A stretch of 64,000 bases of DNA from a virus: IMG/VR virus record IMGVR_UViG_3300023174_000089, positions 1 to 64,000 of that record. One strand, written 5' to 3'. The notes beneath the pieces were generated by a model, which saw nothing but the letters and a program-made list of their open reading frames with translations, was not told the origin of the DNA and did no database searches. Shown here in pieces: positions 55,580-55,895 of this stretch (position 1 is its first letter; every line of letters begins with the position of its first letter). Made by a program: the position numbers and the translations under genes.

Positions 55580-55895
55580 AGGCCAGGTGATTCTGTTGCT
55601 AAGTTCACCTGGTGAAACTCCGCTTACCGTTTAGGCAGCAAGTGCAAACTTATTATCGTTAGCGTTTAATTTAATTTGCTTCTTCGGCCGAGTATCTTCA
55701 ACCCTAACGTCTTTAGCTTTGACGATTCTCCATTGTTCTAATTATTGCTATGTCGAATCTAGGCACCCCCATCAGAAGTATATTGCCACATTTGTGTTTG
55801 CTACCAAGAACCTGGTTCGTCAATATACTTTTGGTGGAGGTGGTGGGAATCGCACCCACGTCCACAACAACTTTGAAACAACTTCTACGAATTTC
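55580..55895 (-). ncRNA. ssrA: Circularly permuted (two-piece) tmRNA gene: acceptor piece ~55895-55832, intervening segment 55831-55771, coding piece 55770-~55580
   Basis: The 3' tRNA-like half (GGAC-GTGGG-TGCGATT-CCCAC-CACCTCC-A-CCA) precedes the 5' half (GGGGGTG...ATTCGAC). They pair into a 7-bp acceptor stem with G3.U70. Tag ORF ANDNKFALAA* lies at 55663-55631. Outer ends are approximate. Confidence 0.9.

Follow-up and report, generated by a model that had tools for sequence, protein, structure and literature searches.

Complete two-piece tmRNA gene of circularly permuted form in a marine T4-like phage (Kyanoviridae type), with counterparts at the same locus

The DNA analysed in this study (the window) comprises the first 64 kb of an IMG/VR virus record of 114,873 bp, for which CheckV gives a completeness of 68%. 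Read along the minus strand, the genes around the locus of interest are arranged in the order radical-SAM/oxygenase cluster, exonuclease, small ORF, tmRNA, 92-aa ORF, cell-wall hydrolase, gp33, gp59, deoxyribonucleotidase and gp32; tail-fibre and baseplate genes occupy the remainder of the window. The phage belongs among the T4-like myophages and is of the marine Kyanoviridae type. Its gp32 is 57-62% identical to the homologues of cyanomyophages and of phage Melnitz, and gp32 and the exonuclease are about equally distant from those of cyanomyophages (51-62%) and of Melnitz and phage HTVC008M (44-57%). Genes for SmpB, for psbA (a cyanophage marker) or for CsgG (a pelagimyophage curli marker) were not found in the 115-kb record, which is 68% complete. 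The following features surround the tmRNA gene.

56168..56827, minus strand: PD-(D/E)XK exonuclease, conserved upstream neighbour (PHROG 298, 2e-73; Pfam PDDEXK_1; synteny)
56130..56158, minus strand: candidate sigma-70-like promoter (TTGCCT, 17 nt, TATAAT), 3' of the exonuclease gene and 5' of the small ORF/tmRNA unit
55885..56106, minus strand: small upstream ORF of 73 aa (TTG start) or 35 aa (ATG at about 55992), hydrophobic in its C-terminal half
54419..54640, minus strand: gp33 late-transcription coactivator, conserved downstream neighbour (PF16805, 7e-21; PHROGs; synteny)
53803-54417, minus strand: gp59 helicase loader, downstream of gp33
52351-53235, minus strand: gp32, downstream of gp59

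Because promoter-like sites were no commoner in this region than in shuffled sequences, the promoter at 56130..56158 is a candidate only; the ssrA gene of Melnitz has been placed just 3' of an early promoter (Buchholz et al. 2022, PMC9004378). With its stop codon (UAG, 55887-55885), the small ORF reaches into the first bases of the acceptor piece of the tmRNA, and the two are therefore probably co-transcribed. When related loci (designated L in this study) were searched with tblastn, homologues of the small ORF with 43-63% identity were found directly 5' of the tmRNA in L004, L012, L059, L060, L083, L111, L117 and L121. As judged from the alignment, the frame ends about 12 nt earlier in most relatives, and the overlap with the tmRNA is thus specific to the window. 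Directly 5' of the exonuclease gene (56820-60951, minus strand), the window also encodes a radical-SAM protein (PHROG 1802, 481 aa) and an Asp/Asn beta-hydroxylase-like protein (PF05118); a beta-hydroxylase-like gene is likewise found upstream of the tmRNA slot in L012, L060, L083 and L111. Elsewhere in the window, two very long ORFs (1138 and 1352 aa) at 31785-39261 on the minus strand coincide with a rise in GC from about 35% to 46%. The first of them has matches to collagen-like repeat tail fibres, and the rise reflects Gly-rich repeat coding, not foreign DNA.

The tmRNA gene was called by ARAGORN as a permuted tmRNA (tmRNA*) at 55540-55924 on the minus strand, with the tag ANDNKFALAA*, the same tag as in the original prediction. 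On this strand, the T-arm, the acceptor 3' strand and CCA come first, the spacer follows, and the acceptor 5' strand and the tag frame come last. The Rfam model tmRNA_permuted (RF04321) matched the window with 112.4 bits (cut-off 47; E 4e-21) over model positions 1-213 of 213. This is a complete circularly permuted two-piece tmRNA gene, far beyond chance. Its parts are as follows.

55832..55892, minus strand: acceptor piece, with the P2 3' strands, GGAC, the T-arm, the acceptor 3' strand, and A plus CCA (RF04321 alignment, cofold, RNAalifold)
about 55892, minus strand: start of the P2 3' strand region, which begins AUUCGUAGAAG (sequence)
55863-55860, minus strand: GGAC (sequence)
55859-55855 and 55847-55843, minus strand: T-stem GUGGG/CCCAC, 5 bp (sequence)
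55854-55848, minus strand: T-loop UGCGAUU (sequence)
55842-55836, minus strand: acceptor 3' strand CACCUCC (sequence)
55835-55832, minus strand: discriminator A and encoded CCA (ACCA; sequence)
55771..55831, minus strand: spacer of 61 nt, presumably excised on maturation (sequence, cofold)
55830-55821 and 55785-55776, minus strand: closing stem of the spacer, a perfect 10 bp (sequence, RNAalifold)
within 55771..55831, minus strand: inner spacer hairpin CCAGG/CUUGG, and a CUGAU leader preceding G1
55580..55770, minus strand: coding piece (RF04321 alignment, cofold, RNAalifold)
55770-55764, minus strand: acceptor 5' strand GGGGGUG, with G3 at 55768 (sequence)
55763-55753, minus strand: D-loop analogue CCUAGAUUCGA
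from 55752, minus strand: P2 5' strands
55724-55708, minus strand: P3 hairpin CGUC/GACG
55703-55686, minus strand: inserted hairpin GGUUGA/UCGGCC
55631..55663, minus strand: tag frame GCU AAC GAU AAU AAG UUU GCA CUU GCU GCC UAA, ANDNKFALAA* (ARAGORN)
55583..55612, minus strand: 3' hairpin with an 8-bp stem CCAGGUGA/UCACCUGG and a loop containing AACAGAA (cofold, RNAalifold)
55548..55570, minus strand: second downstream hairpin AUCAGC...GCUGAU, 3' of the tmRNA and ahead of the 92-aa ORF with its RBS/ATG (RNAalifold)

In the minus-strand reading, CCUAGAUUCGAC stands directly 3' of GGGGGUG and is followed by the second P2 strand. GGGGGUG and CACCUCC form a 7-bp acceptor stem that contains the G3.U70 pair (G55768 with U55838) and continues into the discriminator A and CCA. 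When the two presumed mature pieces were folded together with RNAcofold, the minimum-free-energy structure contained this acceptor stem as an intermolecular helix with G3.U70, together with the T-arm, P2 (9 + 7 (+4) bp) and the 3' hairpin. The outermost pairing was drawn as GAAAUUC/GAGUUUC by the cofold and as AUUC/GAAU by the Rfam model and RNAalifold, and both strands are invariant among relatives. When the alignment was searched by eye for PK1, no second pseudoknot stem conserved among relatives was seen; the pseudoknot of 4+4 bp that can be drawn for the window is not conserved in them. The second downstream hairpin may mark the 3' end or a processing site. A putative internal promoter in the spacer (TTGACG...TATACT) was dropped owing to poor spacing and a poor -35 element.

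RNAalifold analysis of the window and eight relatives, carried out without a covariance model, yielded 85 pairs, 19 of them with compensatory changes. The helices recovered were the T-arm, acceptor stem, spacer closing stem, inner spacer hairpin, P2, P3, 3' hairpin and downstream hairpin. In the spacer, six pairs of the closing stem and two of the inner hairpin changed in a compensatory manner, and compensatory pairs were found in P2 as well (9 sequences). One pair of the P3 hairpin occurs in three types (UA, CG and GC), and in the alignment a G-C pair of the inserted hairpin is replaced by A-U in the relative L086. The 3' hairpin exhibited the changes G-C to A-U and U-A to G-C, and the downstream hairpin at 55548..55570 (RNAalifold columns 352-375) also has compensatory pairs, with U-A replacing C-G. 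In the tag frame, relatives differ by a synonymous change of the resume codon (GCU to GCA) and by conservative changes (F to Y). The loop motif AACAGAA is invariant in an alignment with the tmRNAs of Melnitz, HTVC008M and a Rhodobacteraceae genome and with other viral tmRNAs. Moreover, among 47 distinct viral sequences compared with fixed anchors, 313 of 423 cells for the nine P2 pairs adjoining the T-arm were paired, compared with 230 +/- 8 when partners were shuffled, and pair 2 of the T-stem occurred as U-A, C-G, G-C and A-U and never as a mismatch; these counts are inflated by the relatedness of the sequences, although their direction is clear. The compensatory changes identified by RNAalifold indicate purifying selection. 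Taken together, the ARAGORN call, two Rfam models above their cut-offs, cofolding, covariation and the synteny described below bear out the original prediction of a permuted two-piece tmRNA in a T4-like phage. Its coordinates were all correct on the minus strand, and the parts that it had named (the 61-nt spacer closed by a perfect 10-bp inverted repeat, the G3.U70 pair, helix P2 and the terminal 3' hairpin) are all present, with covariation support from related sequences.

An exact-motif scan of IMG/VR for the T-arm/acceptor sequence yielded at least 120 loci. Among those listed, ARAGORN called a permuted tmRNA in 84, with tags mostly of the form AND..[YF]ALAA. In 74, tblastn with the window proteins revealed the same arrangement of exonuclease, tmRNA, (92-aa ORF, hydrolase), gp33, gp59 and gp32. 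Ten of the loci listed are close relatives, 81-90% identical over the whole gene, and carry the tags ANDNKFALAA, ANDNKYALAA, ANDNMYALAA or ANDKYALAA. A blastn search with the locus returned nothing at 1e-5 from 50,697 deposited phage genomes, a set that may lack records close to the genome of the window. When 401 evenly sampled Pseudomonadota genomes were searched by BLAST for a bacterial donor, no full-length match was obtained; matches were limited to the T-arm/acceptor segment of about 35 nt, plus a single match of about 50 nt in the tag region. The ANDNK[FY]ALAA subfamily, with no full-length match in these deposited phages or in the 401 Pseudomonadota genomes, is new but minor.

Two-piece ssrA genes are known from pelagimyophages and from Melnitz, a phage of OM43 (Buchholz et al. 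2022, PMC9004378). In the same study, 133 unique phage tmRNAs were counted in public genomes; 53 were of the two-piece type, and marine or aquatic samples were the source of 50 of the 53. Of 47 Melnitz-like contigs examined there, 17 had a two-piece tmRNA. A tmRNA database paper, the source of RF04321, lists 79 phage tmRNA sequences (PMC11915505). Given that this kind of two-piece tmRNA is already published (PMC9004378), the description of a compact permuted tmRNA in a T4-like phage as unusual and easily missed does not hold: such genes are published from marine T4-like phages, the one of Melnitz is annotated, HTVC008M has one at the same locus, and at least 84 further cases are present in IMG/VR. 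Nor is the window gene particularly compact.

The shared locus also bears on whether the gene could be a relic or an artefact, such as a piece of host ssrA acquired at an integration site, a chimeric assembly that includes host DNA, or a pseudogene in decay. It is true that tmRNA genes are common integration sites and that prophages often carry their 3' fragments (PMC9004378, PMC4383910). In the window, however, both pieces are complete and full-length models match them; there is no integrase context among the annotated ORFs, and a T4-like replication module encloses the gene. Across 74 independent viral contigs among the loci listed, and also in two cultured lytic phages, the tmRNA occupies the same locus in the same orientation, whereas the 401 Pseudomonadota genomes match only the T-arm/acceptor segment of about 35 nt (in one case about 50 nt of the tag region). 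With compensatory changes indicating purifying selection as well, an origin as a relic or artefact is extremely improbable. We consider it highly probable that the window carries a functional, phage-encoded permuted ssrA gene, belonging to a two-piece lineage that occupies a fixed slot in marine and aquatic T4-like (Kyanoviridae-type) phages.

Among the closest described counterparts is the ssrA gene of Melnitz EXVC044M (MZ577097, 45984-46436), which is permuted, scored 113.4 bits with RF04321 and, as in the window, belongs to a T4-like Kyanoviridae phage. It occupies the same slot, 3' of a PDDEXK nuclease and 5' of gp33, gp59 and gp32, and is annotated as SsrA tmRNA in GenBank. The two genes share a G at T-loop position 55 with an A in the D-loop, and an AACAGAA loop in the 3' hairpin. 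Unlike the window gene, that of Melnitz fits the alpha model well (106.7 vs 58 bits) and has a longer tag (ANDNYVPVDYALAA), a much longer spacer and a glutamine riboswitch just 3' (L156:1886-1934, RF01739, 52.8 bits), and there is no BLAST-level nucleotide similarity between the two. With the Melnitz riboswitch recovered as a positive control, no glutamine riboswitch was detected in the window at gathering or E<=1 thresholds, and no counterpart was detected in HTVC008M (L157), L121, L111, L023, L043 or L027. HTVC008M (NC_020484, 145161-145370; L157 1501-1710) has a full-length permuted tmRNA (RF04321, 90.6 bits) in the same slot, where exonuclease, tmRNA and gp33 are followed by gp59 across the record ends. 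It likewise encodes a 10-residue tag, which ends in YALAA; it differs from the window gene in being alpha-type (83.8 bits), in its tag ANFNEYALAA and in its T-loop UGCAAUA. This tmRNA lies between gp194 and gp195 and is absent from the RefSeq feature table for that stretch.

Among bacterial tmRNAs, the two-piece molecule of Caulobacter crescentus (RF01849), reportedly described by Keiler, Shapiro and Williams in 2000, resembles the window gene in the order of acceptor piece, spacer and coding piece, in G3.U70 and in an ANDN... tag ending in AA. In the alpha consensus of RF01849, T-loop position 55 is likewise G and the D-loop is UAG. The alpha type differs from the window in the remainder of its T-loop (GGCGGUA vs UGCGAUU); moreover, the score margin of the window is weak and its tag is shorter. 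The betaproteobacterial type (RF01850), which Sharkady and Williams are said to have described in 2004, shares with the window a 10-residue ANDxxFALAA tag and resembles it in the post-stop sequence (ACGG.AGC.G.G) and the arrangement of the 3' hairpin, whereas in the beta consensus a UUCGAUU T-loop goes with a GG D-loop and the terminal A is not encoded. Phage tmRNAs without a phage smpB, as in the window, are also found in cluster C mycobacteriophages (Bxz1 and relatives) and in Bacillus phage G (PMC4131195); those genes differ in being one-piece and non-permuted, and the phages and their hosts are unrelated.

Covariance-model scores were also compared between the two clade types. Screening with the Rfam permuted-tmRNA models, as had been proposed, gave a divided result: RF04321 (112.4 bits, cut-off 47) and the alpha model RF01849 (58 bits, cut-off 50) were passed, but the beta model RF01850 (76.8 bits, cut-off 84) was not, even though it gave the window more bits than did the alpha model. 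A genuine alphaproteobacterial tmRNA (L134) reached 213 bits on the alpha model, compared with 58 for the window. Melnitz (106.7 bits) and HTVC008M (83.8 bits) are alpha-type by this model, and the beta model was passed by L111 (97.4 bits), L027 (112) and L043 (149). Because the beta model gives true alpha tmRNAs as much as about 72 bits (0 of 151 sampled Pseudomonadota passed the cut-off), the beta score is not diagnostic and the clade of the window gene is ambiguous. An alpha or beta label was rejected as undecidable by the clade models, neither of which fits well.

The T-loop UGCGAUU had been called non-canonical. The G at its second position is indeed present, but it is no isolated oddity: among the at least 120 loci listed, the second T-loop position carries G in 61 cases, U in 52 and C in 7, and the G is always accompanied by a change of G to A in the D-loop. 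In all permuted sequences in which both loops could be parsed, a T-loop G occurs with AGNN before UCGAC in the D-loop, and a T-loop U with GG[UC]U before UCGAC, such that the base four positions before UCGAC is without exception A with T-loop G and G with T-loop U. The combination of A and G is also found in the Rfam alpha consensus, Melnitz and HTVC008M. From general tRNA and tmRNA structure, this pattern would correspond to a tertiary 18:55 pair that switches from G:U(psi) to A:G; it could also have arisen by descent alone in two clades. When 185,579 bacterial species genomes were scanned for the exact motif of a G-type T-loop with the acceptor stem of the window, 15 matches were obtained, mostly one-piece tmRNAs and chiefly from Elusimicrobia. 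Only 2 of the 15 are permuted, namely the sole tmRNA of a Rhodobacteraceae MAG and a tmRNA on a contig of a 'Verrucomicrobiales' MAG. The latter MAG (G003) has four permuted tmRNA genes on contigs C47, C75, C192 and C240 (L128, L138-L141); one of these contigs has 22,067 bp and the tag GEGNFALAA, in both respects equal to the IMG/VR viral contig L022, and the bin probably contains marine phage contigs.

The spacer was compared across the viral loci listed. Among 57 distinct spacers of at least 28 nt, 34 are closed by a stem of 7 or more contiguous bp, compared with 23 of 1140 shuffled sequences. These stems begin 0-3 nt after CCA-A and end 3-5 nt before G1, and over 20 stem sequences are represented; most leaders in front of G1 read YUGAU. 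With closing stems found throughout the family, the 10-bp inverted repeat of the window is a family trait, and it probably serves to present both ends for processing. The window spacer (55771-55831) is nearly identical to those of L043 (8530-8592) and L002, and identity is 88% over the segment from the T-arm to the D-loop. Between the window and L043 or L002, BLAST no longer detects similarity in the P2 and mRNA-like parts, and the 18:55 type is not the same, while the spacer is about as conserved as the tRNA-like core. Sharing of the spacer with these loci suggests either recombination or selection on, or a sequence-specific role of, the spacer.

Whereas the sequence, fold, covariation and synteny of the gene are documented directly, we infer its processing, alanylation and tagging activity from the two-piece tmRNA of Caulobacter and from established knowledge of tmRNA. 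In such a scheme, a single precursor would be transcribed from the gene, probably including the small upstream ORF, and in the folded precursor the acceptor stem (CACCUCC/GGGGGUG) would be extended by the 10-bp spacer stem. Host RNase P would then cut 5' of G1 (55770), host 3' processing would expose the encoded CCA (55832), and the 61-nt spacer would be discarded. The resulting acceptor piece (~61 nt) and coding piece (~190 nt) would be held together by the acceptor stem and about 20 bp of P2. The molecule would be charged by host AlaRS through G3.U70 and delivered to stalled ribosomes by host SmpB and EF-Tu. Translation would resume on GCU, and the nascent chain would gain (A)ANDNKFALAA, a ClpXP-type degradation signal. 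The original prediction had noted the lack of smpB in the window and presumed use of the host protein; none was found even in the whole 115-kb record (68% complete), and function would therefore hinge on compatibility with host SmpB. A likely benefit, which we offer as conjecture, is that the capacity for trans-translation would be kept up while host RNA synthesis is shut down and mRNA is degraded.

An alternative role for such a molecule is that of a decoy or inhibitor, whose tRNA-like domain titrates host SmpB or AlaRS and shuts down host trans-translation without itself tagging anything. The lack of an SmpB gene in the 115-kb record and the poor fit of the mRNA-like domain to the clade models would accord with this role, and there is a precedent in mycobacteriophage DS6A, for whose tmRNA, consisting of the tRNA-like domain (TLD) only, a decoy role has been proposed, with inhibition by TLD-only molecules (PMC4131195, PMC11915505). 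However, the tag frame is intact. Its peptide, with the ending ALAA, is conserved throughout the subfamily and in most of the 84 viral tmRNAs listed, and so are the context of the resume codon, the 3' hairpin and AACAGAA. Because a pure decoy needs none of these, their conservation argues against this role, which is very unlikely. A further proposal, made with the original prediction, is that trans-translation takes place but serves counter-defence: the tmRNA would rescue ribosomes that have stalled through the action of anticodon nucleases of the host, of its mRNA interferases or of other RNases involved in abortive infection. The site among early and replication genes fits early expression; otherwise, what speaks for this proposal is just the presence of a rescue RNA. 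In the 74 syntenic loci listed, no defence or anti-defence genes accompany the slot, the neighbours being the exonuclease, gp33, gp59 and gp32, and general maintenance of translation or recycling of amino acids (PMC9004378) explains the data equally well. A dedicated function in counter-defence therefore seems unlikely, if less so than a decoy.

As to the history of the gene, we tentatively propose, at somewhat less than even confidence, that the two-piece tmRNA is an old, vertically inherited element, bound to a fixed slot in marine and aquatic Kyanoviridae-like phages, that has diversified inside the phages. Diversification within phages is pointed to by the alpha-like and beta-like versions at the same locus, by the switch of the 18:55 pair between G:U and A:G, and by the structured spacer common to the otherwise diverged tmRNAs of the window and L043. 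If vertical inheritance is true, the 'type' of a tmRNA would say nothing of the current or recent host, and the case for the published inference that the alpha-like ssrA of Melnitz reflects a host jump from SAR11 to OM43 would be weaker. The G55 version with the acceptor stem of the window (15 matches in 185,579 genomes, 2 of them permuted) would then be essentially a viral signature. Caution is advisable when the ssrA type is used as a host marker.

The window gene leaves the known kind of two-piece phage tmRNA unchanged, and its novelty is limited to minor points. What the record contributes is a well-defined subfamily, characterized by its short ANDNK[FY]ALAA tag, by an encoded CCA and by a spacer of 61-69 nt that is structured, at a locus conserved in a large group of uncultured marine myophages, which is useful for annotation and for the choice of constructs. 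Spacers of other kinds were also seen among the viral loci. At L052:370-495 (plus strand), and likewise in L071, a tmRNA spacer of 139 nt holds an ATG-initiated frame of 41 codons for a hydrophobic micro-protein (MENLILLVLIVVLNVYW...); a gene nested in an excised spacer would be odd. The 238-nt spacer of the IMG/VR locus L108 seems to hold a second T-arm/acceptor-like segment (GGUUCGAAUCC...CACCA-like), which may be a nested tRNA-like element or a duplication.
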